From positions 10,601,099 to 10,665,098 of the forward strand of contig CM082581.2 of NCBI GenBank assembly GCA_040954595.2: 64,000 bases of DNA, written 5' to 3'. The translations under genes were made by a program, and so were the position numbers. Each line of letters starts with the position of its first letter. Position 1 is the first letter of the stretch. The DNA comes from Balanoglossus misakiensis (Eukaryota; Animalia; Hemichordata). The notes beneath the pieces were generated by a model that saw nothing but the letters and a program-made list of their open reading frames with translations, did no database searches and was not told the DNA's origin. Below, one piece after another: positions 5,633 through 53,962 of this stretch.

Positions 5633-7908
5633 TCAAACTCCTGTTGCTTGTTGGTTAACCGCTTTGCTGACTGCATCATCCTTATCCTTAGGATTGCTCT
5701 TCTCATCGACAGGATTTCTGTCTGTCCTCTTGCCAGGGTTCCAACTGGACGGCTCAAACGTTGCGTTTGTCCTCACATAGCAGCCGTCCTTGAACAACCT
5801 CACTAGAATCCTTTTGATATTCCTGGAGTCGGCCAAGCCGCTGTGTTCACGCCCATGGAAGCTCATTCCCAATTCTTCCAGCATCCGGCTGAGTTTGAGT
5901 CTCCGGGTGTGGTAGAAATTGCTGTACAAGTTGCGGATGTTGATGTACTTCCTGGCATAGTCCGGAAACGGGATTTCACTTAGCGCGCATTGCACACTGA
6001 GAAAGCACACAATGTCCCAGGGTCTAGAGAGTAGGATTAAACAAAAAAAAAGATTAAAACTTGGAGGATAAACAGACACTGGTCTCTTTGGTAGCTGTCA
6101 AGAAAGGACTGGAGTTTTGTGGTGAAGGTCACAATTGCTTACCCGTCTGTGAGAATGGAAAACGTGTACTTTTCACCAAGCTTCTTTTCCGCCATCCAAT
6201 CTTCAAATTTTTGGAAAACTCTTGAAAAAGTGTCAGCAGCATCCACTTGTTCCTGTTAAAGTAAACAAACAACAACAAATTAATTGATGTGGATACTTTT
6301 ACCTGCAGTGTGCTAAACCTTGCCTTATGTTTCAAAATTGGTAATGATGGCAGGTTTTACAGACTAATCACTTACCTGAGTGATGCCTGTAAGTTCAGTA
6401 CAAAACTTTGACAGTTTAGGATGCAACACTGGTTGACAAAATGAATGGAATTCATCTTCCTGCAATTGAAAAAAAAAGTATATCTCACATCTTGGAAATT
6501 AGTCATCAAAACGACTCAGTGTTTACTTCAGCAGTGTAAATGGATCAGTGGGTATTGCTATGTTCAAAAGTTTTTATACGGTTCATGGAAAAACTCACCA
6601 CTTTCAGAGTCTTGGTGTTCAGCAGCACCACAGGAAACTCAATAATCTCATGGATGTATTCATCAGGCGTCTCTTTCTCACAAGTAGCTTCAAAATCTAT
6701 CACCAATATGTAATCGAAGGGGCATTTGACGACAGGCTTGTCTTCATTTTCTTCTTCCTCGATACCCGCCTGGATCAGCATTTGTTTCTTGGTGTGTGCC
6801 TTTAATCTTTTCTTCAGAACTTCCTTGCTTCCGCTGTGGTGTCAAGGGAGGAAGAAGCACATGGGAGAGACGTGAACATGCCGCAAACTTTGATCTCTAG
6901 ACATGTATGTATTTCGTCCAATGCTGTGTACAAATAATTTTTAACACTTCTGCACTGACAAAAAACATCAAAACGTTTGAAGCCATTATCCTGTTGTTTC
7001 AAGAGAGAATGAACTTCCAATGTAATACTTACTCTACGTCTAGATTCAAATCTGCCAGTTTCTCAGACAACTGCTCCATGTTTAATCTATTGATTTCACC
7101 ATTCTTCAGAGAAATCTCTTTGTAAATGGGGTCACTGAAGTCCCCTCCCCCTGACCGTCCTGCCATTATGACTGGATTGTATCCATTGGTTTTGTTAACC
7201 TGTACAAAATGTAAATGTTCGGTCAGTGAACATCCTCATGTATCGGTATGATCATAGACAATACTACTGTCTATGGTATGAACTATCAACGTTATGCATA
7301 ACTAACCGGCCACAGTCCCCCCCCCCCCCCACTGGACGGTGGCCTGGGTTTAATTTACATAATTTGTTTATACACTGCCATGGAAACACTGGGCGGTAGC
7401 TCCATGGTATTGTGTATTACATACAACTCAATTAAACGCCTGTTTACGATGGAAATGCAGAACTTCCCCACCTTTTTACGTCTGACACCTGTTTTATCAG
7501 GCGACTCCACAGATTCCGTCGTCTTTGTTTTGATTTCTTGTTCAGATTTGCTACGTGACCTTTCACCCACAACAGCCACTTCCGAGTCGATACAAAATAT
7601 GGTTTTCAACAGATATCGGATCTGGTTCTCTTAGTGGACACGACTATACTCCACGGGCGATAATATGGTTTTTAGGGTTAGGGTTAGGAGGGTTAGGGTT
7701 AGGGTTAAATTCACCCTCACATTGCCACCCCTAACCCTCCTAACCCTAACCCTAACTCACCCTCATTGCCATGGTATCGTTGCCATGGGGTATAGTCGTG
7801 TCCACTAAGAGAACCAGATCCCAGATATCGACCCAAAAGCCATAGTGCTGATAAACCAAGTATTCCTACTGTGACAGCACCAGCTGATGAGTAGGAAAAC
7901 TCTGGCAT
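5633..7908 (-). CDS. ERI1: 3'-5' exoribonuclease ERI1 (SAP + DEDDh exonuclease); apparent exon 1 interrupted by a MITE; alternative in-frame ATG at 7166
   Basis: Spliced translation gives DFSDPIYKEISLKNGEINRL, the SAP motif GSKEVLKKRLK, VIDFEATC, HEIIEFPVVLLN, FCTELTGITQ, LTDGPWD and GREHSGLADSRN, all matching recalled human ERI1. Exon 1 (7908 to ~7472) joins exon 2 (starts 7199) in phase 0. Confidence 0.92.
7618..7821. mobile_element. 204-bp hairpin MITE with 32-bp perfect TIRs, internal inverted TTAGGG arrays and an 8-bp TSD (CAGATATC)
   Basis: TIR GGATCTGGTTCTCTTAGTGGACACGACTATAC at 7618-7649 with its exact reverse complement at 7790-7821. CAGATATC at 7610-7617 and 7822-7829. Internal ttagggttagggttaggagggttaggg is mirrored by ccctaaccctcctaaccctaaccctaa. 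Confidence 0.95.
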
Positions 7909-8783
7909 CGAAATATTGTCACTTGCTTCCGGGTTCTGTCCAAAGTCGTGTGTTCGTAATTCACTTACTCCAATTATTTAATGGTCCGCAGCAGTGGACT
8001 AGGCTCGTTCGACAGTTTAAATGTTTATTGTTGCCCAATCGTTTAATAGACGGCGATATAAAAATCGTAGTAAATGAAACTGAAATTTTAACAGTGTTTT
8101 ATAGTCGTTTATCCACATTAAAGTACTTAAAAGTTGTGTAAAAGACTTTTTTTCAGAGAGACATGTTTGAGGGCGCTTAGGGGAGGAAAGTTTGAAGTGC
8201 CAGACATTTTAATTAATTAAACTTCTGCAACTTAAAATCATGGAGTGGTGCTGCAGTCAGTGTCCACAGATGGCCAAGAAAGGTGCGAAGAAAAAGCCTG
8301 CAGTGCACTGCTACCAAACACCTGGCCAATATGGTGCTGCTGGTCTAAACCGAACATTTTCTGTAAGAACATAGGATACGCATGGTTTTGAATGAAATTT
8401 GCATACGTGTACACAGTAGCTAACTTGTTCTGTTTCTATGATACTTTCTCTTCGAATATGTTCAGTGCAATTATTATCTGATATTTATCAATTTACTTAT
8501 CAATCAAAGAGCCAAAAGTTACACAAATGTATGATTTTCCACATTCAGACAAAAAAAAACTTTTTAATATCAAAATGCATGCTTATCAATACAGTGTTTT
8601 TGACTATACTAAATTTGTACAGTTATTCCTTTTAATTAATTTGCCTTAAATTGTATGTATATTCAAACAGGTGAACCACCAAGTTACATGAATTCCACAG
8701 CTGGACAGTGATACCTGTGAGTATATGAACAAAAACTGCCAAGCACACAGAAATTAACATACTGTCAATTTTTCGAACTGCAG

Positions 8784-8925
8784 TAGCTGTGGCATCGCAG
8801 CTGTACCGTGCGTGGGGGGGGGGGGGGGGGGGAGATGCTAATTACCCCCAGGGTACCACCATGGGGGGGGGGGGGGGGCATTGGCATCTCCTCCCCCAAA
8901 CGGTACAGCCGCGATACCACAGCTA
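8784..8925. mobile_element. Palindromic MITE with TAG...CTA termini and poly-G runs
   Basis: tagctgtggcatcgcagctgtaccgt (8784) pairs with acggtacagccgcgataccacagcta (ends 8925) with 2 mismatches. Inner gagatgctaat/attggcatctc also pair. No clear TSD. Confidence 0.7.
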
Positions 8926-10020: not shown

Positions 10021-12687
10021 TTACACTGAGTACTTGATCGGTCGGAACTGAGATGCCTTTGATGGATCTGTGGGAGAATGTTCGATGTTTTGCTGATCAC
10101 CTCCCGGTAGCAGTACTGTCTCCTCGTTCAAACTGTCATGATCGAGCTCTTGGTCGTCGTCTTCATGTTTGCTCGACTGGCTGTGTAGTTTCTGAGCCTC
10201 TCTCTGTTGTCGACTCTCTCTGGATGGCACACTGCTGCGAGATGAGCCGCTGCTGTCGCTTCCTCTCTTCCAAGGCTCGTCACGGCGACGGTGAATTTCA
10301 TCTTCGGCGACAAAGTCCTTGCTTTCCGTGTCCCTGGTTCTCAGATTTCCCCCGCTTGAATTATTCGCGTGATCTCCGAGGAACCTGACATCAAGTCTCG
10401 TTTCCATTTCACTCCCGGACGATTCAAGGGTGCCGTCGCGCAGTCCGTTCTGTTCCGTCATGTTCCCGTCGCCGTACGTCTTCCTCTGCGGAAGTGGTTT
10501 CATGGGAATCGATATTCCGTCAGATTCACTGTCAGCATCGGTGTGCAGGTGAGCGTTGTTATTCTGGAGGTACTTCAAGAAGTGCTCCGACTCATTCCGT
10601 GGCACGCAGTTTGGGGTGGCGGGCTCTTTGTAGTGAACGGACGCGTAGCCTTTGTCTTTGGGATCCCTGCATCCCTTGACGGCACGGCAACCGATCACCA
10701 TGGAAACGCAAAAGACCGTGAGGCTGACCAGGCCCAAGCTGAGAATTTGAGCGGGGCCTTTGTTGCAGACGATGTTGGGTTCAAAAGCCAGGATTGGCTG
10801 GCCTTCAAGTGTGGCCGGATAGGCACACGTGTACTCATTGGCGTTGACAATAGTGATCGTTGCATTTTCGAGCCAATAGCAGAACCACTCCAGATCACAG
10901 GTGCAGTGAAATGGGTTATCTGCCATGTTCAACACCTGCAAACTTGACAAACCCGCAAAAGTGGTCTCATTCACCATTGTAATCAAGTTCGATTGGAGAT
11001 CCAAGGCGTGCAATGTGGACAAGTCAGCGAATAGACCCCGGCCAAGCTGGCTTATGTCATTGTCACTCAAGTCGAGGTAGAGCAACTGCTTCAGACTTTG
11101 AAACGTTCCGGGATGGATCACATCCAGACGGTTCCCCCGGAGGGACAGCCTGGTCAGAGTTTGACGCAGCGGCAGGAACACCGTGCTGTTGTGCACGAAG
11201 AGAGATCCGTTGTTGAGATCGTTGTGTCCCAGGTCCAGCTGCTGCAGGGAACTCATTCCGGCAAAAGTGTTGGAGATGATGGTGGAAATGTTGTTGTGAC
11301 TCAAATCCAAGTACGTGCATTCAAAGAGGTGCCGGAACGGGACGACCCCGGGAATTTCCGTCAAGATGTTGTGCGACAAGTCCAGCGTCTTGAGAGCAGT
11401 GGTGTTGTGGAAGACGTCTTTCGAGATGCTTGAAAATTGGTTGTGTGATAAGTTGAGGTGGTTTAGGACCATAGCTTGACCGCCAAAGATTCCAGGTTGA
11501 AGTGTACCACTGAGCTGATTCCTACTGAGGTCTAAACTTGAGAGTTTGTTCAGCCCCCAGAAGGCCGCATTGGGAATTTCACCACTCAACTTGTTCGCGG
11601 ACAATACTAGCTCTTGGAGGGTGGTTTTCACAGTCGACAGGTCTGAATAGGTCTCCAGTTGATTTCCGGTCAGATTGAGAATCTTCAGATGACGCAAATC
11701 GGCAAGGACGGACGCTTCTAGAAATTCTATCTTGTTGTAGGAGAAATCGAGGTGTCTGAGGCTGGGTAGAGGGAAAGTGTTTGGACTGAGCTTGCGCAGG
11801 TAGTTGAATGACAAGTCGAGCACTTTCAATGTTGACTGTTTCAGCGCTTGAAAAGTGGTGTTTCCAATATCGGTCCAGGCCATCTCTCGCAGACGGAGTA
11901 TTTTCATTTGGGCATTCTGCAGGCCGTACAACACTTCAGCCATGTAAGAGGGGGTCAGCAAATTGCCACTCAAGTCAAGAGAACTTATCCTCTGAAAGTA
12001 CTTGAAGGAGTCTTGATTTATCGTCTGTAGATCATTGTAAGAGAGATCGAGTCCTTGAAGCATTGTGCCGTTTAGGCCGACAAAGTCCTCGCTCTGGATT
12101 GCGGAGATCTCGTTTTCAGCCAGATTCAGCTCGAGGAGAGTATTGAGATTCCAAAAAGACTCGTCGAAGTTGAGCTTCTTGATTGAATTCTGCCGCAAGT
12201 CCAACACTTGTAGAACATGAAGTGGGGTCACTGCCCGTGGTACGACAGTGAGAAAGTTTCCTTTCAAAGACAAGTGCTGCAGTGAGGGGGTGTGTCTGAA
12301 TGTGTCCGCATGGATTCCCCCGATGTAGTTGTCCGACAGGATCAGTTTCTGCAGGCGCATCAAACCAGCGAAGGCACGCTGCGAAACAGTTTCAACGTTG
12401 CTATCGGACAGATCTAAAAGTTGCAGATTAATGAGGCCGCTGAACATACCTGCACCAAGTTCGGTGATGTTGTTGCCACTCAAATCCAGAACGACTATTT
12501 CCGATGACAGGTTTGCGGGGACCTCCTGCAGGCCCAGATCACTGCAGTCAAGTTCTGTGTCATTGTAGAAGCTGAGACACATATTCGGCTCAGAATTTCC
12601 AGACAGAGATGTCCCCTTCACGAGAACACCCAACCCCAGACATACTGCAATGACAGCAATTATACACACTCTGCACGAGACAGCCAT
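10021..12687 (-). CDS. Intronless type-I membrane LRR protein (TLR-like ectodomain, no TIR domain)
   Basis: 888-aa ORF: signal peptide, LRRNT (C..DCS..GL..VP), about 20 LxxLxLxxN repeats, LRRCT (NPFHCTCDLEWF...C.YP...C), TM ILSLGLVSLTVFCVSMVIGC, and a ~220-aa charged/Ser-rich tail ending IKYSV. Confidence 0.9.
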   Translation of the reverse strand: MAVSCRVCIIAVIAVCLGLGVLVKGTSLSGNSEPNMCLSFYNDTELDCSDLGLQEVPANLSSEIVVLDLSGNNITELGAGMFSGLINLQLLDLSDSNVETVSQRAFAGLMRLQKLILSDNYIGGIHADTFRHTPSLQHLSLKGNFLTVVPRAVTPLHVLQVLDLRQNSIKKLNFDESFWNLNTLLELNLAENEISAIQSEDFVGLNGTMLQGLDLSYNDLQTINQDSFKYFQRISSLDLSGNLLTPSYMAEVLYGLQNAQMKILRLREMAWTDIGNTTFQALKQSTLKVLDLSFNYLRKLSPNTFPLPSLRHLDFSYNKIEFLEASVLADLRHLKILNLTGNQLETYSDLSTVKTTLQELVLSANKLSGEIPNAAFWGLNKLSSLDLSRNQLSGTLQPGIFGGQAMVLNHLNLSHNQFSSISKDVFHNTTALKTLDLSHNILTEIPGVVPFRHLFECTYLDLSHNNISTIISNTFAGMSSLQQLDLGHNDLNNGSLFVHNSTVFLPLRQTLTRLSLRGNRLDVIHPGTFQSLKQLLYLDLSDNDISQLGRGLFADLSTLHALDLQSNLITMVNETTFAGLSSLQVLNMADNPFHCTCDLEWFCYWLENATITIVNANEYTCAYPATLEGQPILAFEPNIVCNKGPAQILSLGLVSLTVFCVSMVIGCRAVKGCRDPKDKGYASVHYKEPATPNCVPRNESEHFLKYLQNNNAHLHTDADSESDGISIPMKPLPQRKTYGDGNMTEQNGLRDGTLESSGSEMETRLDVRFLGDHANNSSGGNLRTRDTESKDFVAEDEIHRRRDEPWKRGSDSSGSSRSSVPSRESRQQREAQKLHSQSSKHEDDDQELDHDSLNEETVLLPGGDQQNIEHSPTDPSKASQFRPIKYSV

Positions 12688-14368
12688 CTTTTCCCGGGTT
12701 GTCAGAATTCAAACACTGCCAGGGTATTATTGTAGTAGTTCTAAAGATATTACCAGTAATCAGTTCTTGATTTCACAGAAATCTCTTGATCTCAGGACTG
12801 TTTCCTCTTCCCAGTGGACACTCAGCTGGTTATTGATCCATTGTCTGGTACAAATACGGTGAACATTTCCGCTCAGAGTGGTCTTCTTTACAGAGACCTA
12901 ACTGCAGTCGTACACGCCTCACTAACCTGGCTGTCTTCTGGCAATTATTTGCGGACCAACACATGACCCTTGATATGTGACCAGACTGGTTAATAAGTTA
13001 ACAATTAAACAGCACAATGGTCTGTTATAAAGTTGGCCTTGAGGGGCTCAGTGTGTCCAGCCAGCTAGACAAAAAGAAAATTCTAACTATGTTTAACATG
13101 TCCAAACTCTCTTCACTCAGTTCGGCAGCTTTTGGAGACTTTTATTGAGTTGTTCTTTGTCATGCAAACACTGTCATATAAATGCATGGAAATCCCTTGG
13201 AATTTACGGCCTATGCCTATAGAGACCCTGAGCTTTCAGTTAATCAAAGAATAGTTTACAAAATGCTTAGCGTATGGAGCATGTGTATACCTGTCCCAGT
13301 GCATTGGTAGCTCTAAATTAATTAGTTTCCATTGTAAACTTTGTTTTCAGAGTTTCTGGTGTCTATTGACAACATTTACATTGCGTCGTTACTATTTACT
13401 CAGTAGCCCTCTAGTGTCCTCATGGATATTTCTGTGCCCCTTTGTTTTCACAACACCACCTGTTGCTAGTATCAGAAGTCGAACTCTCAGAATTTCAAAA
13501 AATGAAATTGCAATATGAAAAACCAACAGAAGAATGAAATAAACATTTTGCGAGAGTATGACAGTGATAAAAACTGTCATTTTATGTATTAATATTTTTT
13601 CTCTATAGAAAACAGTCAAGAAACAACCAAGATAGTGTTTGTTTACAAACTCTATGACCATGGATGACAGTTGGTATCAATGTCAGATCCATGCGAGTGT
13701 TACAGGTACTTTTAATATGCCAGATACGTTCATTTTGGTGTATTAGAAAGTTTTTTTGTATTTACAGTTTTGCAGATTTTTTGCAACATAAATGACTGAA
13801 AGATAGCATTGCCTTGGCAACCACTGTGTGATTTGACATTAGAGTGACCTTGACAGGAGGGACAACTGTTGTGTTTGTGTCTTGAGCCATCATCGTAATT
13901 TGAATGACAAAAGTAATGCTTACTTACATAAGGCCATTGTCGCACAGTTTCACTTAATGAGGGTTATAGACCTACTGGGGAGTTGGCGGACTTGACGTGA
14001 CAATCAGAAGTTATCAGCTCTGGCAACCATGAGAAGTTGACAGCAGTTGTTGTTAAGGCGAGTTGAAGTGAGTATTTTGGAAAAGTGTAAAAAGGTCAAA
14101 TTGTCATTTTGTAAATATTGATCAAAAGCACAATGTGACTGTACTGTCAGTGCACAGACATCGTCTTTTAGCTGTGTATACACCTATTTGTTAGTGTATT
14201 GTTTTGATCCCTTTCACTACACAGTGTTACTTTTTGTAAGATCTCGTCCACTGCTTGTACTAACCACATGACATGGAATACTGTGATTTCCACACTTAGG
14301 GGTGTAGTACAATTAAAAGATAAAATGGAGCAAGTTTCAGTGAAATTGCACTGACAGTTGACTGAGCA

Positions 14369-17300
14369 ATGGCCACTTGGGAAGCGGGACTTAATCGCGG
14401 ATCGCCGGATCCTCCTGAACACCAAGGCGGATTTAAAAGGAGAAAAAGCAGTCGAGCTGATTTTAAAAATGTGGAGAGGTTGTTACGAGTTGAGCGACTC
14501 GCCGAACTGACCAAGGAAAGCTTTCAGGCAGCAAGTCTCTTGGATCTGGGAAGATTACAGCATTGTTTGAAAAGTGGGGTCAATGTGAGGTCAGTGAATG
14601 AGTTAAAAGAAACACTTCTGCATGTTGCCTTGCATGCTGTCAAGAGGAGAGTAAAGTTGAGACATTACAGGCGACAGAGGTCACTCCATCAGCAGAGACA
14701 AGAGGAGAGCTGTGGAGGGACAAAATGGAAGTCAAAAGACACAGATGATGAGGTAGAGGAGAAATGTACGTAGTAATGTAAATTGTCAATTGTTCATATC
14801 AAAATGAATCAACCTGGCAATTTTATAAGTATCTTTAAAATAACAAAGACAGTATATTGATATTACCGTAGCTGCAGACAGCAACCTGCAGGTGCTATGT
14901 TCTTGAACTTTTGAGATTGTATGAGACAGTCCCTGCAAAATTGATGCTTTTTGGGGGAAATTTTATATGCATTTGTTGAGCTGAATTGCAAAAGCAATTA
15001 AGATGACTGAACTATATAATCCATGTTGAATTATGAAGGATTGGTAAAGAAACTATAGTTCTCTTTCTTTTTCTGTCAGGCGAAGAAGACATTGTAAAGT
15101 TTCTGATTGAGGCTGGCAGTGATGTCAATTCTCAAGATTTCTATGGCAACACCTGCGTGCACATTGCTTGCAACGATAGCATGCTACACATCCAGGCACT
15201 CATGTACGAGCTCGCCAAACCCGACATCTCAGTCTTCAGTTACAGTGCAAACACCAGGCCCCTGGACGATGCCTGCAAGATGGGCCATCTCAAGACTGTC
15301 GAGATGCTTCTTGGCCATCTTGATGATACCCTGGAGAAAGTACCCTCCTCCAGCGTTGGTTCCGGTGCGCGCAAAAAGAGAAATGGAAACCTCACGAAGC
15401 AGTCCTATGCTGAACCATCAACCAGTGAACTGAAATCTGCCTTGGACTGTGTTAATGAAGATGCATATACAGCATTACACTATGCTGTGATGGGAGGTTA
15501 GTAACATTTCCACTGTGCAAATGTGGAGGTTAAGAAACTGTATATAAAATCTACCAGTGTTAACCTCAAAGGTTGCCTAGTAACCGTTATTTTATGTGAG
15601 TAATAAAGTGTCTGTTGTATGTTTGCAAGAGTGGCTGAAGAGGTTTGTACATATCGGTAGGTGTGTGACTATGTATATGCTGCAGGTAGGGGTCAAATAT
15701 GTACAGGCAACATGCATAGCAGTTTACTCAGTAGCTAAATATATGACGTATGATGTACATCAATGACGTATGAGGTTTCTCTGTGACGGTAGAAAAGTTC
15801 CTCCAGTATGACGCAAAAGACATTATTCAATTTAAATATAATATTTTACAGCTTCAACTCAAAATAATACAATAATCAATTCTCAAAATGGGTTATGAAT
15901 GGTTTATGCACAGGGATATCCAGATAGTTAGAGGATTTCTTGTTTGTTAATGTCGTTCCCATCTGGATTCGAACGATAATGTTGATCTAAATGTTATCAC
16001 ACTTGTGTAATTGGTTTGTGAAGTTGATTCCAACTTTGCTACAGTTGTTGTACAGTTTATATGCTTTGCGGCAAACACAAACAGGATTAATGGTTTCTTA
16101 CCCGGTAGGATGCTTCGCCAGTTTGTTTAAATAAGACAATAAAACCAGTCAACTGATTGGCGCTACCCTGACTTTATTTAATAGCCCTGTGTGTGGTAAA
16201 AGCACGCGTAGATAAAAGTCTTGCTTTAGCAAGCAATGTGAAGTGTAAGACGATCCTCTTACGACACCCGTAATACCCCACTGTTAGTATTGTAATCAAT
16301 CTCGATATAACCTCTTTGAATTTACCGCAACATCAACAACTGGGCGCCGAAACTGAAGTAAGATAAGGAACAACTTGGCAAACCAAATGTGCAAGTATGG
16401 TAACATTTAGATCAACATTATCGTTCGAATCCAGATGGGAACGATAGTAATGATATGTATGATGTATAATTAAAAATGGATAGATGTATGTTTGTAAAAT
16501 CCAGATCTGATCAGTTCATTTCTTTATGTCTACCCCCCTCCAGGGAACCCTGATCTGGTGTCCTTTCTCCTCGCAAAAGGGGCAGACCCCTTGTTGGGAA
16601 GCGACGACGACGACAATGGACAGAAGAAAACCCCCCTCCATCTGGCAGCTGTGAGGGGGCAAACAGACATCGCTGAGATGTTAGCTGATGCCAACAGTCT
16701 TCTTGTGAACCTGGAGGATATACACGGAAATACGCCTTTGCATGTGGCCGTGTTGAAAGATAAAGTGGATGTTGTTGAAGTAAGTCCTCGCTCTGTTCTT
16801 GCAGGAATACTGAGGGATTCCAATTGTATTCTTGGAATACTGCTGGTGTATGTATCATTAATACATTGCAATACAGTGGTACTTTTTTGAAACAATAGCA
16901 GTATACGCCATCCCTTGCTTTGATCATAGGTGCAGCTGTTTCCACTTGCTTTTGTTTATTTTGTGACTTAAAGGCCAGGGTCAAACTATTTTCACAGAAT
17001 GCAACATCTGTTCTTTGCACTCCAGTCAATAAAGTCAACACATTACCCGTTTGTTTTATCAAAATCCATAATTTGGTAATACAGTGCCTGACTCAGGACT
17101 CAAGTGATCTCTGATTGGCTCATTCTTGAAATGATTACACCAGACAGCCAATCATTATGAGGCTGTCTGTAGGTTGGCCTCAGATACCAAAAATCTGTCG
17201 TATGTATCACAGCCAGAATAAGTTGGACAGCAATACTTGGTGTTACCCTGAAACTGTAAAATATATACCTAAATTGAGGAATCAGTTTCTAAGGAAATGA

Positions 17301-20300
17301 GGTAAAGTATCTTTTTTTTAAAAAGAAAAGTCTTGAGTCTTTGTTGATTGTACGAATTAAGACATTTATAACTTCACGCATGTGCTTATGATTTGTTTCA
17401 GGTGTTGGTCTCAAAAGGTGCCAATTTGAAAGCCAAGAATGAAGCAAAGAGGACCCCTTTAGACGAGGCGCTCCTTAGAATTCCTGTCAACGAAGACATC
17501 GTAGATCTTCTGAAAAATAAAACGGTAAGTCTCTTCGATGGCCACAACAGTGGACAGTGGTGGTGTATAATCACTATGCCAGCTGTTGTGAAATTGAATT
17601 GACTGTTGTCTGGTGTACAAACAATAATCTGTTTCAGAAATATTTATTCATAACTTGGCATTTAAAATTTGAGGGATGAGATTCCTGGTATAGTGGTATT
17701 GTACTTTTTCAAACACATTTCAGTTTTATACCGTGTACCTTAAACTGAGAATAATACTAAAGACACATGTAAATGATATTGTCACCTGCAGCTGTATCAG
17801 TAATTTTTCACAACCCGTATAAGTGAATAATTACCAAATTATACATGATTGCCTTGGCAAAAGTTCTTTGGTTGTTTTGTTCAGTGATCCCATACCCATG
17901 TGCAGTACCAGCAGAAAATGCAAAGTTTAATTTTTACCATATGAGAGTTCGGCGCCCATTGTACGTGTGCAAGTTGGTAAGGAGTGACTCAGTGTGTATA
18001 TTGCAGTCTTGCACAAACACCTGCCACATTTATCATGCCTGCATTGTTCTCATTTCTGATGCATCTCGTGAAACATTCACCCCCTCAAATCATACGGTAG
18101 TCTAGTAGAGAACACTATTTTTGCTGGTAGAAAATCTCTACCATTTCGCTATACATCTGTATGTTTGCCAGGGAACTGAAGTGCTAAAATTTGTGTTTTA
18201 TCTTCAATAGAGCAAAAAGAAAACTAAGGATATGGCCAAGAAGGAACAATCTAGCAACCTCTTTTCTAAACTGACTGAGATCAAAGACATTGGTGGAAAA
18301 TTCCTGAAGAAGGATCGGGAAAAGAACAAGGAATATTCCGACACAGAGGAAGACAAGGAAGAATTGGATCCACAGAGTCTGGAATTTTTAGACGCAGCGA
18401 GTGTTGGAAATTGTGGTGGCATTGTTTCATGTCTGAAACAGGGCGTTAATCCAGGTAGATGAATATAATTTAGCTAGCTCAACAATGGTTTGGCAATGAA
18501 TTCAACAATGCCAGCTGGTTGTCAGTTTAGCTCAGTTCAATAAGGGATTAAATATCAACCAAGTTCTGTAAATAGGTATCTCTACGCATATTGTAGTAAT
18601 AAAGACAGACCATCTTTAATATTGACTTTGTCCTCAGATGTCCAGAACAGTGCTGGAGAGACAGCTCTCCATATAATCATCGAACAGGGTCACCCTGACC
18701 TTCACTCATTATTGGCCACCATATTGGAAGCAGGAGCCTCACCAGATGTGACAACAAATAATAAACAAACTCCACTGCACTACGCAGCATCTACAGGTAA
18801 GAACATTTTCAGCACTTCACTTTGTTGAATCTTTTGCACAGTGAATTCCATCATACTGTTATCATACATTTGTCATACACTTGTGTGTGGAATTTGTATG
18901 ATTCTTTTTTAAATCAAGAACAACATTTGACAGGTTACTGACTGGTTGAGAACTCGTATTCAGTTTGAAAACAATAAATGTCTGTGTTTGCATGGCAGGT
19001 TCCTCCGTGGCAATGAAGTTACTGCTGGACCGAAACGCTGACCCAAACATCCAAGATGTGAACGGTGAAACTCCACTGTTTACCTTGGCAACCGAGAAAC
19101 TGACGGTAGAGCAATCCATGACGTGCGGCAGATTGCTCGTAAAACATGGAGCCAACGTCAACCTTGCAGATGATAATGGACTCACACCATTGCATGTTTG
19201 TGAGTTTCAACTTCAGAATTTCCAAAAACATTTTGTCTGATGAATTTGAGTGTATCAAAAAGGCAAATTCTCTTTCTTTGCTGCCCAAATTAAAAAAAGT
19301 ACCAAACAAATCTAAATAAATAAACCATGTAACTATTTACATCATGACACAATATTAACCTTAGCCTTTTCCTTACAGCTTCCAAGTATGGCAAAAAGGG
19401 TTTGATGAAGTTATTCATGGAAAATGGAGCTGATCCTGCCATAGGTAAAATTTTGATCTATCTAAAAAGATTGCACCAACCAAGACCACAAATCCAGAAC
19501 CTATCAATAAAATAGATTGATTACAAAAATGAATTGAGGCATGGTGGCAAAAAGCATAAACTATTATGAAGCCTTCAAAGGATAAAGTTTGAATCAACAG
19601 ACAGGGCTCGATGTATAAATGATCGACATATAATTTCTCTCTGTTTCAGTGGATGCCAATGGAAGAACTCCTTTACACCACATTTTCAAACTGGCCCATG
19701 ACTCGCACGACGAATACATCAAAATTCTTGTACCAAGTCACGGCCATCCAATGATTGACATCAAGAACAAGACCGGAGATGCTCCATTGCACATGGCCGC
19801 TCGGAACCAGTGTCCGAACACCATGATATCCCTGCTGGAGATGGGTGCTGATCCCAACCTGGTCTCGGGGAAAGTGCCCAGGCAGATGGCGTTAGAGTTG
19901 CTCTATCAAGACTTCCTTGTGAACAAAAATGAGGTATGGGGAATATTTAGTTATACTCAACTGCAGAGTGGCCTGTATGCCAAATTATGGCAATTGCCAC
20001 TGAAGCAATTTTCTGTGAGAAATCTCAATTTTCATAAAATTTTGATATTTGAGTGTACGGTAATTGTCATTCTGTCTACGTGTGTAATGGATAGGCATTT
20101 TTACTTGTTTATAATTTGTAAGATGTAGTGGGTGCTAATTCCCAGTATTTTTTTGTAGGATCATGAGATTACCAATGACTTCAGCATAGCAGAGAGCATA
20201 GCTGAACCAGAATTAATAGTGAAATCACCATCGCCAATCCTGACAGCCATGAACTACAGCAAGATATTTGCTCACATTGCTGAATCCAAAGATAATAACG

Positions 20301-23300
20301 CCACGTATGCAAGTAAGTTTCAACACATTGTTAGGTTCATATGCTCCTGGAAATGGGTTATCTTGCCATTCTCGGTGATGTGTCTGCACAAGAAATTAAC
20401 GTGAAATGAATCTTTTGATTTCAGCACTCTCAGCTTCCTGTGAGGACCTGACTGTGGATCTGATACAAACCTGCAGAAACATGGACGATGCAAGGATCCT
20501 TCTCCAACACAAGGATTACTTCCTCTACAAAACTGCTTCACAGGATCAACACAAAAAGGTATGCATGCCTTTTATTGGCATCTGTATCGATCCTGATTGC
20601 TAAACTCAGAATGATCTGTGTCTGGTATTTCTGATATTTCAAGACAAAGATGGACAAAGACAATTTACAACCTTAATGGTGATTTTTCATTCATTTTATT
20701 GTCTGAGTACTTGCCCTGTGTTGAGAATGAATGCATGATACAGTAAATTAAATTCATGGGTAAAAATGGAATAGAACATAATTTTATTACATTTCTATAT
20801 CCAGTCATCGATTCCATGGCAATACATCAGTATAAAGTAATGAAAAACTGGCCTTTCCTAAACGACTGCTGATGCATAAATATGAATAGGTCTGCATCAA
20901 CTGAGCAGTTGCCTAGGTTACCAGGTATCCATCGTGTCGAGTGATGAAGTAATTAGAGTTTGAAATCTGACATAAAAATGCCCAGCAACACTCTGCGGGT
21001 TATGATGAATATTTCAGAAGTACAGTCCATATGTCTTTGTCATATCTATAGAATATTTGTGTCACAGTGTTGTGTGTGTCTTAGCTGTGAATAATTCTTG
21101 GCAGGTTTGAAAAGGCTGCGAGCCTTGAGGCTGGATGTGCTGGTTCAATCACTTCTATGCCTCTGTCATACCACTTCATAGATCACATCCATCAAAAATC
21201 CACCAAAAGAGAAAAAAATGGGGTTTTAATTCACCAACAGAAGTGCAACATTTAGCAAAGAACAGAATTTCTTGCATGTTTATTTCCAGTTTTAACGACA
21301 TTATCTTGCATGAACTTTGGACCCTTTGGAGTTTATGGAGAAGTTGCTGGTAGTAATTGTGAAAGAGTTTGTGAAATAAAATATTTGCCACAGTAGATCA
21401 TCATGTGAAAATATATTTTGTACCATATGGTATGAAAAATAAATTTGCTAGTGATGAAATTTCACCTAGCTACCACTATACCAAATCATGCTGTTTTGAA
21501 GTATAAGATATAATTCTTCATATTAAAAAATGTGTTTGCATATTTGATGGAAAGTTCATTTCTATCTTATACATTTATCTATTGTCTTTTTTCTCTCTCC
21601 ATGCAGTTCATGTATGCCACTTACATGCAGAGATTCCTACAAGAAGTGTGGTACGGCAAGGTGTTCAAGTCTTACAAAACATGGCGTCTGGTCTTGTATC
21701 CCACCATTTACATCCTCTCTCCGATAATATATCCCATAATGCTCTTAGTCTACCTGTTCCTGTGTCTACTCTTCGGTGTGTGGGTGCCGAGGAACCGCGA
21801 CCGCGACGACGGTTGCTATGCGTGGCGTAAACCCTTCCAGAAGTATTTTAGATTCTTTTCTCTGTCCACAAAGTACAGTCCGTACATCAAGTTCGTCGGT
21901 CACCTCACGTCGTTCCTCTGTTTCATCCTGGTGGTGTCGTTCAAATGCCTCTTGCCGTTCGACTTCCGGAACCCGATGCCGGTGCCCGCCGTCGACTTCA
22001 TCATCCTGCTGTGGACGGCCGGCATGATCACGAACGAAGCGAAACAGTATCGCATGTCGAGTTCGTTCGCCGCCTACATGACGGTTAACTACCTGGACTT
22101 CATATTCCTGACGACGCTGACGATTTCCTACACCATGCAGTTCATCGCGCTCTTCTACACCATCGCCAACAACTACGACATCAGCGACGAGGAGTACAAC
22201 ACGACTGCACAGTGGGTCATCATCATCCTGATGATAGCCGATGTGATATTCGCCCTGAACACGCTCATCATTTTTGGGAGATTGCTCACATATTTTCAAG
22301 TTAGTCCATTCCTGGGACCACTTCAGATATCTCTCTTTCGCATGGCCTGGGATGTGATCTTTGTGCTGGTCATCTTAGGTGAGTATGAGGTTTTTTCATA
22401 TGTGTTAACAGTATATGGGCACTTACGCAAATTTAGTCATAATTACTATGGAAGTTATCATTGAGATATTGGAGATTCCTTGCTCCTGCGAGTATAACAA
22501 AAAAATAAAACTACTTGAAACAAAGAACAAAAAACCAACAAAATTATCAAGTGGTATCTACCGGAACTGTCTGTCTCTTTCACTTCATGGGACCATTTCC
22601 TATCTCACAAAACTGAACTGGACACTTTCTCCAACTTGTTTGCAGGAATCGTGATGTTTGCCTTTGCTGCCAGTATGACTAAGGTCTACATGGTCGGTCT
22701 TTACACCATTCCACCTGGATTGAACGACACAGAACTACAAGAGAGGTTGTACCCGAGTGTTGGTCCTCCACTCATTCCAGATACTGTCTCCAGGTATTGC
22801 AACTTAGTAATTTATTACTAGATTAGTTTTTATACAAAGTTGGTCAGCAGAGAGAGAGAGAGAGAGGCCGGGGGTTGGGGAGGGAGCCAAACTACAACAA
22901 TTAAAGAAATGAATTTCAACTGAATTATAACCTACTTGGAAATTGTCATACTATATGTTCAAAGGGATGTGAAAAAATGTTTTCACTATGTGAATTTTTT
23001 TACTGATTTTTAATCTTTTTCACTCAGCATGGGAGCCACGCTAGTCAGCTTGTACTGGTCTCTGTATGGATTGCTTGATGTTGAAGACTTTGAGAGTTAC
23101 TACTCAGTGTCCAATGCTGTGGGAAAAGCTCTGCTTGGGTTGTATCTCATTCTGGCTGTCATTGTACTCCTCAACATGTTGATAGCCAAGATCAGTAACA
23201 CATATGCAAATATTCAGGTATGCCTCTTTCTTTGATCATCTACCGTATCTTCTGTAGTTAAAGTCTCACTGTACAGAACTTCTTTGCATTATTTTTATGG

Positions 23301-24636
23301 CTTTTAACATTCAGATTTGATCGTCTTTCAGGAAAATTCCCGTGTGGAGTGGAACTATGCCAAAGCCACTTTGATCATTGAATATCAGGAGTCCCAGGAC
23401 TTGCCAATTCCTTTCAACTTCATCCAAACGATTGTGAGGGCGATTATAAGATTGTTCCGTAACTGTGGACGGTGTTGCAAGAGATCTAAGGTACTGTAAT
23501 ATTGAGTTTGCAAATTCATTCATAGTTAATTTATCGTATCATTTCCGTAAAAAATGTCCTTCCATATTTAGTAAAAGATTTCCATCTCTTCTACCAAATA
23601 CCGTAGGTTGTTGAGATTTCGGCTGAACCTGATAACACAGGAAAGGGAGACTTGGATTATGGCGAAGAAAATCTGACTTTCTTGGATGATGGTGGGATGA
23701 ATAATGTGAATGGTGCTTCTCCTGCAAATAGGTATGTGTACTGCCTACCATAACCTTAGTGTAGTATTCATTTTCATTAAATTTAGACTGTGAAACATTT
23801 AATTAAAATGGATCTGTGAGTGACTTCCACATGGCACAGTAGATATGGTTTAATATGAGGAGGGTATATAAAAATGGGTAAAAATATCCATTGATTTGAT
23901 TTTAGTGAAGCAAAACTCCGCAGTGACATAGACCAGGCATCAGGAAGTGAGACAAATAAGTCTTCTGGGAATGACTCTGGCAAAGTAACAGGGAACGGGT
24001 CCGGCAAAACATCTGGGAATGGCTCTACTAAGGCCAAAGAAAAAGAGAGAGAACTGGCAGAGGAAAAGAAAGAGGTGGACAGAATCCTGGCTTACGTAAA
24101 AGCAGATTATCTGAAAAAACAAGAAGAAGCCATGAGATATTCTTTAAAGGTATTTCTTGTATGTCTTGACAATGATTTTCATTTGACCGAGATATCATGG
24201 TTTATACCGTACATGTTCTGGCTGTGATATGGTTTGTCAGACACTTCAGGGAACCTATGAATGATTTGTTACGTTTTTATCAGCGTTGATCATATTCCGG
24301 TATGATCAAGCCCTGTTATATCGATTTCCCGCTCAATCTATCATTCACTTTCCAAGTCAAAGTTTGATATACGAGAATTTGCCAGTATGTGGTCTCAGCT
24401 CCCAATGCCTTGACTATATTTCATTTCCTTACAAACATTCCCCCTCGCAGGAACTGCATAACAAGATGAACTGTAAAATGCAGATGATGGAGGAGAAACT
24501 CAGACTGTTGTGGAATGAGGTCACAACCTGGAAGACAAACACCAATGCTAAGATGAAAGAAATGCACAAAAACTTCACCAACACACAGGAAGTTCTCAGG
24601 AAACATCTCCAGAAAAAATTTGCAGAGAAATCATGA
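14369..24636 (+). CDS. TRPC-type (short TRP) cation channel with an extended ankyrin-repeat N-terminus, 18 exons
   Basis: Phase-consistent exons start at about 14369, 15080, 16544, 17402, 18211, 18639, 18999, 19379, 19650, 20159, 20425, 21607, 22646, 23028, 23332, 23608, 23906 and 24451. Many G.TPLH ankyrin motifs. TRPC hallmarks: SPILTA, PYIKFVGH, LGPLQISLFRM, pore LYWSLYG, S6 VLLNMLIA, TRP box EWNYAK, LPIPFN and a C-terminal coiled coil. Confidence 0.88.
15953..16444. mobile_element. ~490-bp MITE with long TIRs in intron 2 of the TRP channel gene
   Basis: tcgttcccatctggattcgaacgataatgttgatctaaatgtta at 15953 has its exact reverse complement ending at 16444, and the pairing extends imperfectly to ~80 bp. 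TSD is not obvious. Confidence 0.85.
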
Positions 24637-29062: not shown

Positions 29063-32000
29063 ATGGTGCGTGGTCCAGGGCGAGTGAAAGGCGGCAAAGG
29101 AAAGCGTTGGAAGAAAGGCCACAGCAGCAGTTCAAACCCACAATCAAAATCTCATCGACAGGATGCGAAAAGCCAGTTCTTCCACCGAACAACTTCAGGT
29201 ATGCGTTAGGATTTGTGTTGTGGGCATGTGGCAGTTCGGTATGTCCTGTATGTACTAGACTCCGCCAAACCCCCAGGCTCCAGTCATAGAGCGTGATATT
29301 AACATTCAGTAAATGAAACAATATAGTCAAATTACAGTTGTCATGGTAACACTGTAAACACCTAGGGTAAACGCATCCCAGTGCAACAGCTGAAATCGTT
29401 AAAGGGGCAGTACCCAGCATGCCTCAGTCAGTCACTCACTTATTGGTCAGTTGCTTATGTTTTTCTTTATGGAAGTGTGCAAGAGTTATCAGTCCCTATA
29501 GCCTCTTTGCACCATATGATATCAGGTGTAAACTGCAAAGTACATATCCAAACACAAAACCAAACTAACCGTGTCTTTTAATATGAAATATACGTATCCC
29601 TGTCTCCATCTATCTGTATGCATCTATCTGCATGTTTCTATACTCATTCATTCTTATATGTTTGATGTGTGATGCCAGGTGGTAGTGGTCTGACAGAGAA
29701 AGCACTGCAGAGACACAACCAGGCAGTGTTGGAGGATGAAGATGTAGACATTCAGGATGTTGACAAAGAAACTGTCAGTGAAAGAACTTGCGGTACGTTC
29801 ATGAGTGGTCTGACAGATTGCACCAATCCCACGTTTGACAAAGTCAAGAAGTTTTGGGACAACAACTCAGCCAGTCACAAAGAGGTAAGACATACTTCAG
29901 TTTATTTCACTGTATGATTGGATAGCATTAGTTTCAATCCGAGTGATAAATGTTATTGTCACTTTCCGTAGCTGTGTCTGTGTGTGAGATTTGATGATTT
30001 GGATCTTTTTCAGATTTGTGCTGTTTTGGCAGCAGTGACAGAAGTCATTCGTGCTCAGGGAGGCAAGGAAACAGAAACCGAGTACTTTGCTGCATTGGTA
30101 AGAAAAGAAAAGATGTCTTCTGTTCATCTTCAGTTTTCCTGGTCCCTCTTTTCTGTTTTCATTTTTCTGCTTCTACCTCCAAGTCAGCATAACGCTCACA
30201 CATGCACTATTTACTCCCATGTTGTGTGATTTCTTTTCACAGATAACAACTTTAGAGACGGTGGACACTGAAGAGTCCAAAGCAGCTGTTCTTTATTTAC
30301 TCAGCATGGTCATGAAAAGGTGAGGAAATTTTATGAGAATAATCTTGTTCAGCTGAAATAGAAAAAAAAATCCTATCAAGATATAAAATGAGAAAAAAAA
30401 GAGACAAATCAAAAATCTCAATGCTTGTTTGAAATCAAGGTAGGCTCTACTCAACTGTATGCTATTCAAACTGTGAATCATCTAAAAACAGAATAATGCA
30501 TTTTCATTGTCAGAGTTCCTCCGTCAGTTCTGAAGAGTCGTTCTTCAATGGTCAGCAAACCACTGTTGGATATCTTGGCCCAGCACAGCAACACTGCAGT
30601 CTCACCATTGCTCAGGTCAACTTTGTCATCTTTGGCTACTCTGCTTCGTGCCCAAGAAATTGCAGTGTGGAGTGACGCATCCACGTTACAAGTCTATCAT
30701 GGAGTTCTGAGCTACACTATTCATCCAAAGCCAAAGGTTAGTTTCAGGATTATTGATATAAAGCACAAGTGTATCATCTCAATCTCTGCTCCTCTGTTCA
30801 GTCAAACATATCTCCTGCTCTCTGGCTCATACTCATGCAGTCAGTGATTCATAAATAATATTTCCCTGAAATGTCTGACTAGGTTCGTAGAGCTGCCCAC
30901 CAAGCTGTCTGTGCAATACTGAAAGGAAGTACATTCATGACACAAGGAGACCCGCCCCCGTATCACCCAGCTGCCTCCACTACTGCTAAGTTCTGTATCC
31001 AACAGATAGAAGACACTGGAGGTATGTGAAATGGCAAACCTAAACTGTTCTGAAGTCTCATGAGGCCAAAGTTCTTGTAATTCTTGATGATATAATTTTT
31101 GGAGCATATTGTTTGATTTGCTGATGACAGAATAAAAGAGTTTTTTAACTGGATGATGGAAAATGAACAAACATTTACTGTACTGTTACAGGTACTGGTG
31201 AAGCCCATGCTACTCTTCATGTACTTGGATTCTTGAAAGATGTTATTGGGGTATTTCCCCAGAGTAGCCTAAAATCAACTTGTGAGACACTTCTAAGAGT
31301 GATGACTCTCAGTAATGTGGTGAGTAAAATCATATATTAATATAAACATATAAAGTCATATGTTTTAAATAATTTAAGGATGTACGTTCAGTAAAATTGA
31401 AAGTATTGTCATTTTTTTTAATTGTGGATTTTTGGATTCTCCTTTGTATGTATAATGAAAATCCGTAATAAAATATAGGGGTCACCGCGCTTGTTTTTGA
31501 AATACAGAGCCATGAATTTAGTCGAAAAAAGAAGAAAACTGATGACTCAGCATTTTTCACCAATGGTTTGTCTATGGGCAAAATTTTTGACGCAATTTAT
31601 CTCAAAATAGAGCGCGGTGACCCCTATATTTTATTTGACCAATGAATTTATATTTGCTGAACTGAGCTTTGTGTGAAATTTCGTGAAAATGACAATAGTA
31701 GAAGTTTGTTTTCTAGCAATTTTCAATGTAATCCTATGGGAAAAAGACCGGGCGCGCGCTGTTTCCGGTTTATGTTCTGCGCGTACATCCTTAATAGAAA
31801 AGGTTTTTGTATTTTTCAGTTTTGAACCATTCAGGTGTGCAATCATTCGACATGGAAGGATTAAATTCATCCTTCTCTAAATCTGTCTTTTTTTACCACA
31901 CAGTTGGTGACATCATGTTGCATGCAGGCTCTACACGGTATGTTTTCACTGAAACCCAAGTCCAGCAGTTTGCCGCCAGACTTGAACGCCCAACTGATAA

Positions 32001-35000
32001 ACGCCCTGTATGACTACCAACCGAGCGAAAATGATGTGCAGCCAACGCTCGCCTGGCTGGCTGTCATGGAAAAAGCACATTGTAATTTAGAAAGGCAAGT
32101 AATTAATGCTTGGAGATAATTTATACAACAACCATGTAGAGTTAAGGTTAAAAGGGGCTCATATATTTTCCTGACAGATAAAACCAAGCATGCAGGCAAT
32201 CAGTCTTATATTTTTCAATGCTTTGGTTGAGATTTTGAAACATTGCCAAACATTTGCATTACAGTGATTGATTCACTTGGGAGAATACATTGTTAAATTG
32301 TGCAAGTCTTCTTTTATGGGGCCAGGATATCTGTCACTGTCACTGTGAGCATTTTTCATGAATTTTTTTTTAATTATCAATCTTTTTATTTTTTTTTACC
32401 TTCAGGTTGGATGAAAGATTATGTATCAGTCATTTACCTAGGATTTTCAGTTCAGCCATGAAATGCTTAGCTTCAGAGAAAAGAGAAATTACACAGGCTG
32501 CCACTCAGACACTGAAGGTGAGAGAATTTGCGGTATAGGATAGGCCAATATTGTTGGTGAAAATGAATAATGAATGTAATAAATAATGCAATATAAGTAG
32601 GGAAATTTTTCCCAAAGAAAAGAACATGCCATACAGAGAGAATGTATTACATTTCTTCACACGGCCATCTTTGTTTCTTGCAGGAGTTACTGCAGCATTG
32701 TGTGAAGCCAGCAGCTGAAAGACTACAAAATGAAGTGAAGACTGCCCCCAGTGGCAGTCTGACATCAGGGCATAAAATGTTCAAAGCTGTAGAAAGTGGA
32801 CTGGCGTATAAATATCATTCCTCATGGAGACTTGTCTTGCAAATACTGGGAGTGTTCTTTGAGGTAATGCAAATAGTGCTCATAAAGTAACAGTGAATTT
32901 TGCCATTGTTATACTAGTATTTTTCTTAAACAGAACATAACCAGCTTCAGATCTCCCCTCACATGACTAAGTTCCTATGGCTCTATGTTTCATTATTCAG
33001 GTTCTGGGTAAACAGTGCCCTCAGATGATGAAGAAATGTTTGCAATCCATGGCAGATCTCCGAAACACTCACCAGTTTCTGTATGTCTATGAATTAGACA
33101 AAGCTGTGGGTATGGCAGTCAGAAGTATGGGGCCTAGATTGGTGTTAGAGGCTATCCCGCTACAGGTCACAGGAGATGAGTAAGTTTGACATTAGATCCT
33201 TGACAAGAAAAGTTTGGGTTTTTGAATTATTTGGTTGTAGAAATTGAGCTCCTGAAGAAGAAACATACCTTGTTCAAAATTATGGAATCTTTGATTTTCC
33301 CTTCACAGAGACAATTATGATTTCCCAAGAAGTTGGTTGATACCGGTGTTGCGGGATTATACCAGAGAAACAGAACTGCAGTTTTTCACCAAATACTTTC
33401 TGCCGTTGGCTGCAAAACTGAAAACGAAATGTAAGTGTTTCCTGCCATTTGTGCGGTTTTGGCTGACTTGCAATTTTAAATGGGGTATATACCTTGATAG
33501 GAATCACTTCAGTTCAGAATATATCACGTCTTTTGATAGCACTGTATAATGTTTACTCACTCTGTTTTTGCAGCCCTGGAACTAGAACAGAGCGGTCAAA
33601 TGGTCGAGAGTAAAACTTACGACATCCTTCAGTCGCAGCTGTGGTCCCTGTTGCCGGGATTTTGTACCAGCCCAACGGATCTGTGCCTGGCGTTTAAGAA
33701 CATTGCTCGGATACTTGGAAGTGTGCTGAACGATCGACCGGATCTCAGGCCTGATGTCTGCAGTGCGATCAGATTGTTGATCAATAAAAATGTTGATAAT
33801 GGTAAATTTAGAACTATTTCACCATTATTTCTCTGTATGTTGATCCAAGCGTGCCTTAGTCACCTGAAAACTGTTGCTGTGTTTAAAATTTCGGAGTTTT
33901 TGCCATTTCATCAAATGGTATGGTCTTCTATTTCTTTTTGTCTTTCAGAGGAAAACACGGCTGAAGTTGCCAGATTTGCCAAGAATTTCCTGCCCATCCT
34001 GTTTAATATTTATACCACAGTGGATTCGGAGAAGAGGGACTCTACAAGATATACAGTTCTAGAAACGGTTAAGACGTACCTCAGCATTACAGACACCAAG
34101 GTGCGATGATCACTGAGATATTTCATTAATCTTGATTTGAGCTTTGCTTTTAACAGAATGAAATCATGTGATGTACAACTAGTCAACAAACCACAGAGCA
34201 CCACAAACAACCACTGAGATTGATAGCTGTTGCTTTTGTTTGTCTTCACAGCTTGCAAATAACTTTCTTGACAAGGCATTGGACAAACTGAATACAGATG
34301 CCACCTCTCTTGTCAAACATGCTGTCTTGGATCTGTGCATATGCATGGTGCCATACATCAGTACGGAAAAACTCAACAAAACCTACAGCGCAGTTGTTCC
34401 ATACCTTCAGGTGGGTCAGATAAATATGTATATCCAACATGTCATTTCAAAGTGATAAACAGACCACATAATAATTCTGTGCTTGTCTTTTTTATTTAAA
34501 CAGAGCCACGATAAAACCATGCAGAAGAAATCCTATCGCATACTGGAAGAAATATGCGGAAGTTCATCCGAGGCCAGTCAGAAGTTTGTGGAAGACAAGT
34601 TGCCAGAGTTGCAAGAGATCCTGCTCAGTGCCTTGGCGTCATCCACATCATCTTCCAAAGCTGTGAGTTTGCAAATGATGTCATTATGTTTGGAGCATGT
34701 CAGCTCATGTGATATAAGATGTAGCTCTGAGATGTTTATCAAAAGCAATTCTGCAATTGAAACATCAGAGACAACTCAATAAAATAATTGTATCTGATTT
34801 CAGCCAAGACTCCGTTGCCTGATCCACCTGGTGAAGAGACTTCCGGCAGAAAATATTGATTTTGTGGAGTCCATCGTTGGAGAAGTGATTCTGTGCACCA
34901 AGGAAGTGGGCATCAAAGCAAGACAGGCAGCGTTCACTTTGCTTGTGGAAGTGGGTAATACCTTGGTGAGACTGAACAAGGACAAGACTAAGCAAGGTAT

Positions 35001-41513: not shown

Positions 41514-46690
<5,177 letters not shown>

Positions 46691-51522: not shown

Positions 51523-53962
<2,440 letters not shown>

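Follow-up and report, generated by a model that had tools for sequence, protein, structure and literature searches.

In this study, a MITE belonging to a multi-copy family was found in exon 1 of one allele of the ERI1 gene of Balanoglossus misakiensis. The preferred reading, to which we give a probability of about 0.7, is that a new and likely spliceosomal intron restores the frame of this allele and that the enzyme likely still works. The allele would then likely be an intron caught at birth, tolerated by its carrier, and not a knockout. The DNA analysed was a single stretch of 64,000 nt (the window), to which all positions refer. A preliminary description, made from the letters of this stretch alone, had expected, as the main outcome, a reading frame shifted by the insertion and an mRNA containing the whole hairpin; that expectation was not borne out, as the sole transcript form assembled removes one arm of the terminal inverted repeat (TIR) and both telomere-like arms, in frame.

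The ERI1 gene and its first exon

The gene lies on the minus strand and, judged by homology, is an ERI1 3'-5' exoribonuclease with SAP and DEDDh nuclease regions. ERI1 trims histone mRNA, 5.8S rRNA and siRNAs. Its homologues carry PF00929/PF02037, and a Pfam scan of three single exons of the present gene returned no family. Exon 2 (7033..7199), defined by a spliced contig and by tblastn, contains an in-frame ATG at 7166 and the start of the SAP region. Exon 3 (6599..6833), placed by homology and by a contig loose end of run X3 (see below) that matches the exon start, contains the end of the SAP region and the first catalytic motif; used as a query, it found Glandiceps talaboti, at 71% identity, as the best of 165 matches. 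Exon 4 (6376..6459) and exon 5 (6143..6252) are predicted from the homology model, and the coding part of exon 6 up to the stop (5633..6023) from an ORF together with that model. Removal of the element and one copy of the target site duplication (TSD) gives, as the preliminary description had proposed, a frame that runs in phase into the ERI1 exons: the empty-site gene is a six-exon model with canonical GT-AG introns, open throughout and encoding 403 aa. Where it aligns, the model is about 60% identical to the ERI1 proteins of Glandiceps and Saccoglossus; full-length comparison of the gene product gave 58% identity with Glandiceps, 59% with Saccoglossus and 53% with human ERI1.

In the filled allele, exon 1 is divided in two. 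Exon 1b (7472..7578), the 3' remainder of the old exon, is part of a spliced contig. Exon 1a (7761..7908) is a modelled exon, of which the RNA-like contig covers 7761-7790; it would comprise the ATG at 7908, a hydrophobic stretch and 61 nt of the MITE that encode 20 new residues. An in-frame stop is present upstream of the ATG at 7908. Pairwise BLASTP of the exon 1 pieces against orthologues gave no significant match (best E 0.15), so exon 1 rests on splicing, hydrophobicity and a border motif; the alignment placement of a 29-aa exon 1 piece proved misplaced and was discarded as support. At the exon 1/2 border, a run of basic residues followed by VN is common to Glandiceps and the newer Saccoglossus model. 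The resemblance to orthologous exons by which the preliminary description was to be judged was therefore found in this motif and in the hydrophobic N-terminus of Glandiceps, but not as a significant sequence match. The exon that holds the element is transcribed, the exon 1-exon 2 splice being present in an X3 contig.

The hydrophobic stretch (7822-7908) scores 1.71, slightly below a cut of 1.8. An N-terminal window at or above this cut was found in 9 of 218 Met-starting ERI1 homologues, namely those of Glandiceps, six echinoderms and amphioxus and one unnamed protein. The stretch is absent from both Saccoglossus ERI1 models, the older of which starts at the Met that corresponds to the in-frame ATG 7166, and no vertebrate, mollusc, arthropod or cnidarian protein among the 218 exceeded the cut. 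These data suggest that invertebrate-deuterostome ERI1 may be membrane-anchored by a predicted N-terminal segment that was lost in vertebrates; a literature search returned nothing to the point on membrane-anchored ERI1. The N-terminal linker of ERI1 is unconserved across orthologues.

The element, its family and its two alleles

The MITE (7618..7821, not assigned to a strand) is a non-coding element of 204 nt that folds as a single hairpin, as defined by repeat and fold analysis, by its multiple copies and by the empty site. Its TIRs match perfectly over exactly 32 nt (7618..7649 and 7790..7821, likewise unstranded). The left TIR starts with GG and leaves with the new intron; the right TIR would remain in the mRNA, with base 7790 alone covered by the spliced contig. 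As single-stranded DNA the element folds at -77.7 kcal/mol (z -16.4), and none of 200 shuffles folded equally well. The length, the perfect TIRs and the hairpin of the preliminary description are thereby confirmed. A 22-mer of the TIR occurs twice in the window, at the two ends of the element, and not at all in 100 shuffles; blastn revealed no second copy of the MITE within the 64,000 nt. Rfam returned 17 matches to the element, all well under the gathering score and of a generic hairpin type.

The element is flanked by the 8-nt duplication CAGATATC at 7610-7617 and 7822-7829 (plus strand), of which the left copy leaves with the new intron and the right copy is retained in the exon. A duplication of 9 nt had been offered as a second reading. 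The corresponding direct repeat exists, but the terminal symmetry is then perfect over 1 nt only, and the 8-nt TSD is therefore preferred. The head-to-head TTAGGG/CCCTAA arrays are real but short: the plus strand of the element contains four TTAGGG and three CCCTAA hexamers, and the longest perfect run is two units, the arrays being interrupted by GGA. With arrays of this length, the proposals of the preliminary description that the family may disperse sites for telomere-binding proteins and may bear on small-RNA silencing stay conjectural. The first arm (7672..7707, plus strand) contains four perfect hexamers with interruptions; the second, inverted arm (7729..7756, minus strand) pairs with it over 27 nt, and the two arms form a perfect inner stem of 27 bp.

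The region is covered by public contigs of three runs (X1, X2 and X3) from one sample of one study; since this sample may be the assembled animal itself, the runs constitute no independent population evidence. One X2 contig, of depth 35.5 and with 21+9 letters on its short side, passes directly from 7609 to 7822 and leaves out 212 nt; it represents the empty site that had been predicted. The filled junction, implied by depth bins, is carried by a second X2 contig that starts at 7589, has a depth of 19.3 and matches the window. The single-allele depth in X2 is 17-26, and the depth sum of the empty and filled contigs predicts 43.0, where 42.9 was observed. Each of the region's three GATC sites interrupts the X1 contigs, and GATCGATC is contained in one of their loose ends, which makes X1 likely a Hi-C library; the X1 contigs lead from unique flank into both ends of the MITE, up to GATC sites present in the filled allele only. 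As a single sample contains the empty as well as the filled site, the insertion is polymorphic and the animal likely heterozygous for it. Moreover, the other haplotype has six listed differences in exon 1 (7478-7586 and 7854), four of which change residues, which suggests that the exon 1 linker changes fast and that the animal is highly heterozygous. In ERI1 intron 2, a 57-nt skip with GT..AG ends (6925-6983) was seen in both DNA-like runs; it was read as a haplotype indel and rejected as a splice.

The MITE is young and multi-copy. Three X2 contigs of 54-65 nt that are identical to the present copy reach approximately 91, 119 and 150 times the single-allele depth; contig depth is not copy number and the ratios are rough, so a copy number of the order of a hundred is a rough figure. 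Furthermore, the MITE terminus is joined to foreign flanks in at least seven contigs among the 11 listed of 17 loose ends. The empty site, the near-identical interior contigs and these foreign flanks bear out the proposal of a young, possibly polymorphic transposon with other copies in the genome. Three contigs of X1 and X2 share the TIR and then enter a different interior at 7788, a hint of related subfamilies or of a longer partner element. In the flanks of other copies, several letters often agree with the TSD of the ERI1 locus (7612-7617 and 7822-7824; X1 and X2), and all those flanks among the listed loose ends begin with C or G; a target-site preference is possible, and the shared choice of first letter tempers the rejection of the 9-nt TSD.

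The superfamily of the MITE is likely Merlin, as judged by termini and TSD. Merlin/IS1016 elements are described as having GG termini, a TSD of 8-9 nt, TIRs of 24-462 nt and internal tandem repeats, and Merlin has been reported in two acorn worms (relevant sections of PMC8101967). The present TIR starts with GG and has a length within that range, and the TSD is 8 nt at the ERI1 locus, the one locus with paired flanks. The preliminary assignment to Merlin/IS1016 or MULE accordingly fits as far as termini and TSD go, and it depends on these two features. TSDs of 8-9 nt are also made by MULE, hAT and P elements. A match to the TIR start in metagenomes, the only one, lay inside an operon, which we take to be a bacterial ribosomal-protein operon, and had no second arm; it was regarded as chance. 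The first 10 nt of the TIR were not found in 11 supplementary files of PMC8101967, of whose sequence lines approximately 400 letters each were covered. In the S2 appendix of that paper, Merlin transposase loci of Ptychodera flava have, close to one of their ends, a run of T and then two TTAGGG units (the first 4 of 36 text matches), as does the ERI1 MITE. Telomere-like subterminal repeats may thus be common in acorn-worm DNA transposons; the literature search gave nothing to the point on TTAGGG-bearing MITEs.

A probable new intron in the filled allele

The evidence for the new intron is contig 17 of X3. The run is labelled 'DNA?', and we infer from its spliced joints and its size that it is RNA-derived (cDNA-like). 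The contig is 343 nt long with a depth of 5.2, lacks intron 1 and continues from exon 2 into exon 3. It joins 7578 to 7761, and the removed segment (7579..7760, minus strand) is a GT-AG intron of 182 nt made up of 143 nt of the MITE, one 8-nt TSD copy and 31 nt of old exon. On one side of the joint lie 107 nt of unique exon; on the MITE side lie 30 nt without any difference from the window, one letter below the 31-letter bridging rule, and the position of the joint is ambiguous by 1 letter. At all covered sites where contigs of X1 or X2 differ, contig 17 has the letters of the window and therefore derives from the filled haplotype. At 95% likeness, positions 7791-7908 are not covered by X3, and the link to the ATG at 7908 lies outside the contig; 7579-7655 and 7822-8500 are likewise without X3 cover. 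The joint is known from one contig of one sample, and contigs drop rare forms. Two artefactual sources of the joint were discarded: template switching, as only 1 letter is common to both sides, and a retrocopy, which is unlikely as the DNA-like runs X1 and X2 are free of such joints.

The donor AGG|GTGAGT (7755..7763, minus strand) lies within the MITE, has 8 of 9 consensus letters and ranks first among the 15 GT sites found from the ATG to the premature stop; the five old ERI1 donors score 7-9. The acceptor (7579..7601, minus strand) is a cryptic site of the old exon and the first AG downstream of the MITE. It is weak (AAG, with 12/20 pyrimidines, as compared with 12-16 at the five old ERI1 acceptors). 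No difference between the other haplotype and the window is listed at this AG, which indicates that the AG predates the insertion. Four CTAAC motifs resembling the branch-point consensus are found in the C-rich arm, 100-121 nt upstream of the acceptor; another, weaker motif is located at -28.

In the predicted fold of the pre-mRNA, the used donor is unpaired with a probability of 0.63, and three GTs of the telomere repeats and four AGs of the TIRs are fully paired. The acceptor AG in use is, for its part, largely paired (unpaired probability 0.09). Hairpin masking therefore gives no clean explanation of the choice of acceptor and is only a lead as to what might steer it.

The following course of events would account for these observations. 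An unseen transposase, likely of Merlin type, would have inserted the MITE by cut and paste and produced the 8-nt TSD, with the empty and the filled site both observed. In its present orientation the element would then supply the strong donor, which stands in the sequence 61 nt inside its end, and this donor would be spliced to the first AG downstream of the element, which lies 39 nt outside the other end, as in the one contig. With 212 nt added and 182 nt removed, the net change is +30 nt: the residues LKTIFCIDSE (7609-7580) are lost and 20 MITE-coded residues (7821-7762) are gained. The computed model is open, encodes 413 aa with the SAP and nuclease parts and the catalytic motifs in place, and has 58% identity to Glandiceps ERI1 over residues 11-401. 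The exchange lies directly after the predicted N-terminal membrane segment, in a poorly conserved linker that would likely tolerate a swap of 10 for 20 residues. Nonsense-mediated decay clears transcripts with early stops, and it would be expected to clear the unspliced and out-of-frame forms here; the in-frame form is then probably the one seen because such decay, together with purifying selection, removes the others. With the MITE donor, 4 of the 15 acceptors tried keep the frame open, which makes the in-frame outcome by itself not improbable.

The same figures can be turned to an alternative that we regard as unlikely, namely that the filled allele is mostly loss-of-function or weak, that the in-frame joint is a minor survivor and that the animal lives on the empty allele or on a short form from ATG 7166. 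The remaining 11 of the 15 acceptors lead to early stops, and the frame of the unspliced filled allele ends after 63 aa at the TGA 7719-7717, so that the stop at 7717 noted in the preliminary description is confirmed for unspliced RNA. The weakness of the acceptor and the RNA hairpin of -138.6 kcal/mol in the pre-mRNA would also fit a poorly expressed allele, as would the apparent heterozygosity of the animal and the fact that the older Saccoglossus model begins at the counterpart of the Met at 7166. However, the sole ERI1 form assembled in X3 combines the letters of the filled haplotype with the new joint, and if the filled allele were nearly silent, the letters of the empty allele would be expected to have won the X3 contig, which they did not.

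It is highly improbable that the spliced contig represents a transcript initiated within the MITE, or a chimera of the assembly graph with another copy, and encodes only an anchor-less ERI1 from ATG 7166. The contig does end at 7790 with no continuation in X3 toward 7908, and further family-like contigs are present in that run. However, 30 nt is the overlap length at which contigs break at repeats (21+9 in X2 contig 13), so an end at 7790 requires no start site, and the 107 nt of unique exon beside the joint exclude another locus. Excision by SOS splicing (triggered by the hairpin and dependent on AKAP17A, CAAP1 and RTCB), or by a hybrid of it with the spliceosome, has only a very slight chance of being correct: an exonic DNA transposon with pairing inverted ends is a suitable substrate, and RNAs of this kind are processed by SOS splicing in worms and in human cells, with small indels as the result, but its sites are described as many, in or near the inverted repeats and rarely GU-AG (PMC12779559, in the sections on these sites), whereas a single canonical GT-AG joint is seen here, with the donor 29 nt inside the inner end of the TIR and the acceptor 39 nt outside the element.

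Comparison with known systems

The splicing of an exonic transposon from a donor of its own is a known mechanism, and a natural example still segregating in an animal is uncommon. In maize, Ds1 provides a donor within an exon and is removed imprecisely from mRNA (PMC5432752), and Tc1 of Caenorhabditis elegans is imprecisely spliced out of an exon at GU-AG sites (PMC12779559, legend of Extended Data Fig. 9). As far as these passages describe them, Ds1/Ds and Tc1 resemble the ERI1 MITE in that a DNA transposon in an exon contributes a donor close to one of its ends and its removal is imprecise. The alleles described there are mutant or engineered, whereas the ERI1 allele is wild and apparently heterozygous; moreover, the ERI1 donor lies 61 nt inside the element, and 20 transposon-coded residues replace 10 host residues.

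Introners of Micromonas, Aureococcus, Chrysochromulina and others are MITE-like elements with TIRs and TSDs; some carry the 5' splice site and recruit a 3' site at the insertion, and some families add or delete codons (10.1101/2022.06.06.494994; PMC11282704). The ERI1 MITE is likewise spliced from an exon, with a donor in the element and an acceptor co-opted from the exon, in an aquatic host. However, the boundaries of introners, in the parts of these texts that treat them, lie at or next to the element ends, whereas the ERI1 intron begins 61 nt inside and ends 39 nt outside. Introners act genome-wide (10.1101/2022.06.06.494994; PMC12130899; PMC11282704) and give rise to many similar introns per genome, whereas the ERI1 MITE intron is known from one locus. 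The intron was therefore not classed as an introner, because the boundary feature fails and a spliced intron was seen at one locus. That the whole family is an acorn-worm intron maker seems decidedly unlikely; its hairpin would hide its own AGs and the GTs of the telomere repeats and expose a bulged donor, antisense exonic insertions would use the host AG that follows as their acceptor, and numerous introns, each with a 20-residue peptide, would segregate genome-wide. If true, hemichordates would thereby have their first reported introner-like family, as judged by the literature searched. The string 'Hemichord' has no occurrence in the main text of two introner surveys (PMC12130899; 10.1101/2022.06.06.494994); the latter, in the part concerned, covered 835 genomes of animals and land plants and found introners in no more than two groups of animals.

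The intron derived from Doc1053 in Drosophila sechellia GM26034 is a single intron gained by transposon insertion, with the frame kept and few residues added (PMC3296678). It is like the ERI1 case in being a single gain that keeps the frame, and differs in that Doc1053 is a retrotransposon and the comparison is between species; an empty allele within one animal is not described in the relevant section of that paper. Segregating new introns in animals have been described mainly from Daphnia, where they are tied to double-strand-break repair (PMC4202315, PMC3488318), and a 2012 review counted 25 cases of within-species intron presence/absence in animals (PMC3488318). The ERI1 intron resembles those of Daphnia in still segregating in an animal population, but the latter, as presented in the sections concerned, are linked to break repair and not to an identifiable MITE. 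SOS splicing is similar in that the host removes an exonic TIR element from mRNA and buffers gene function where indels hit unconserved regions; it is spliceosome-independent, mostly non-GU-AG and uses multiple sites (PMC12779559, in part), whereas ERI1 has a single GT-AG joint. The ERI1 intron does not look like an SOS product; contigs drop rare forms, and minor SOS forms are compatible with the data.

Direct views of how an animal gains a single new intron are rare. At the ERI1 locus, one animal shows the ancestral and the new allele together with the source element and the spliced product, which makes it possible to measure side by side how efficiently the intron is spliced, how the two alleles are balanced and how frequent they are in the population. 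An apparent knockout of a regulator of RNA silencing has likely turned out to be a tolerated allele, which calls for caution with frameshift calls made from DNA alone.

Several other features were observed in the window. Upstream of ERI1, a second MITE-like element (8784-8925) has inverted ends with 83% complementarity across 36 nt, a TA at each end and internal G-runs, and the inverted-repeat elements at 31467-31635, 15947-16450 and 53073-53137 likely represent other MITE families. Further upstream and on the same strand as ERI1, a single ORF of 895 codons (10021-12708, minus strand) encodes leucine-rich repeats (Pfam LRR_8, E 2e-94), and its product likely has a signal peptide and a membrane segment. 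On the plus strand there are three genes which, from their ORFs, we take to be an ankyrin-repeat channel-like gene (14366-24636), an RRP12-like gene (30497-37853) and a neuralized-like gene (56451-61461). A long trinucleotide repeat lies at about 46250-46530.
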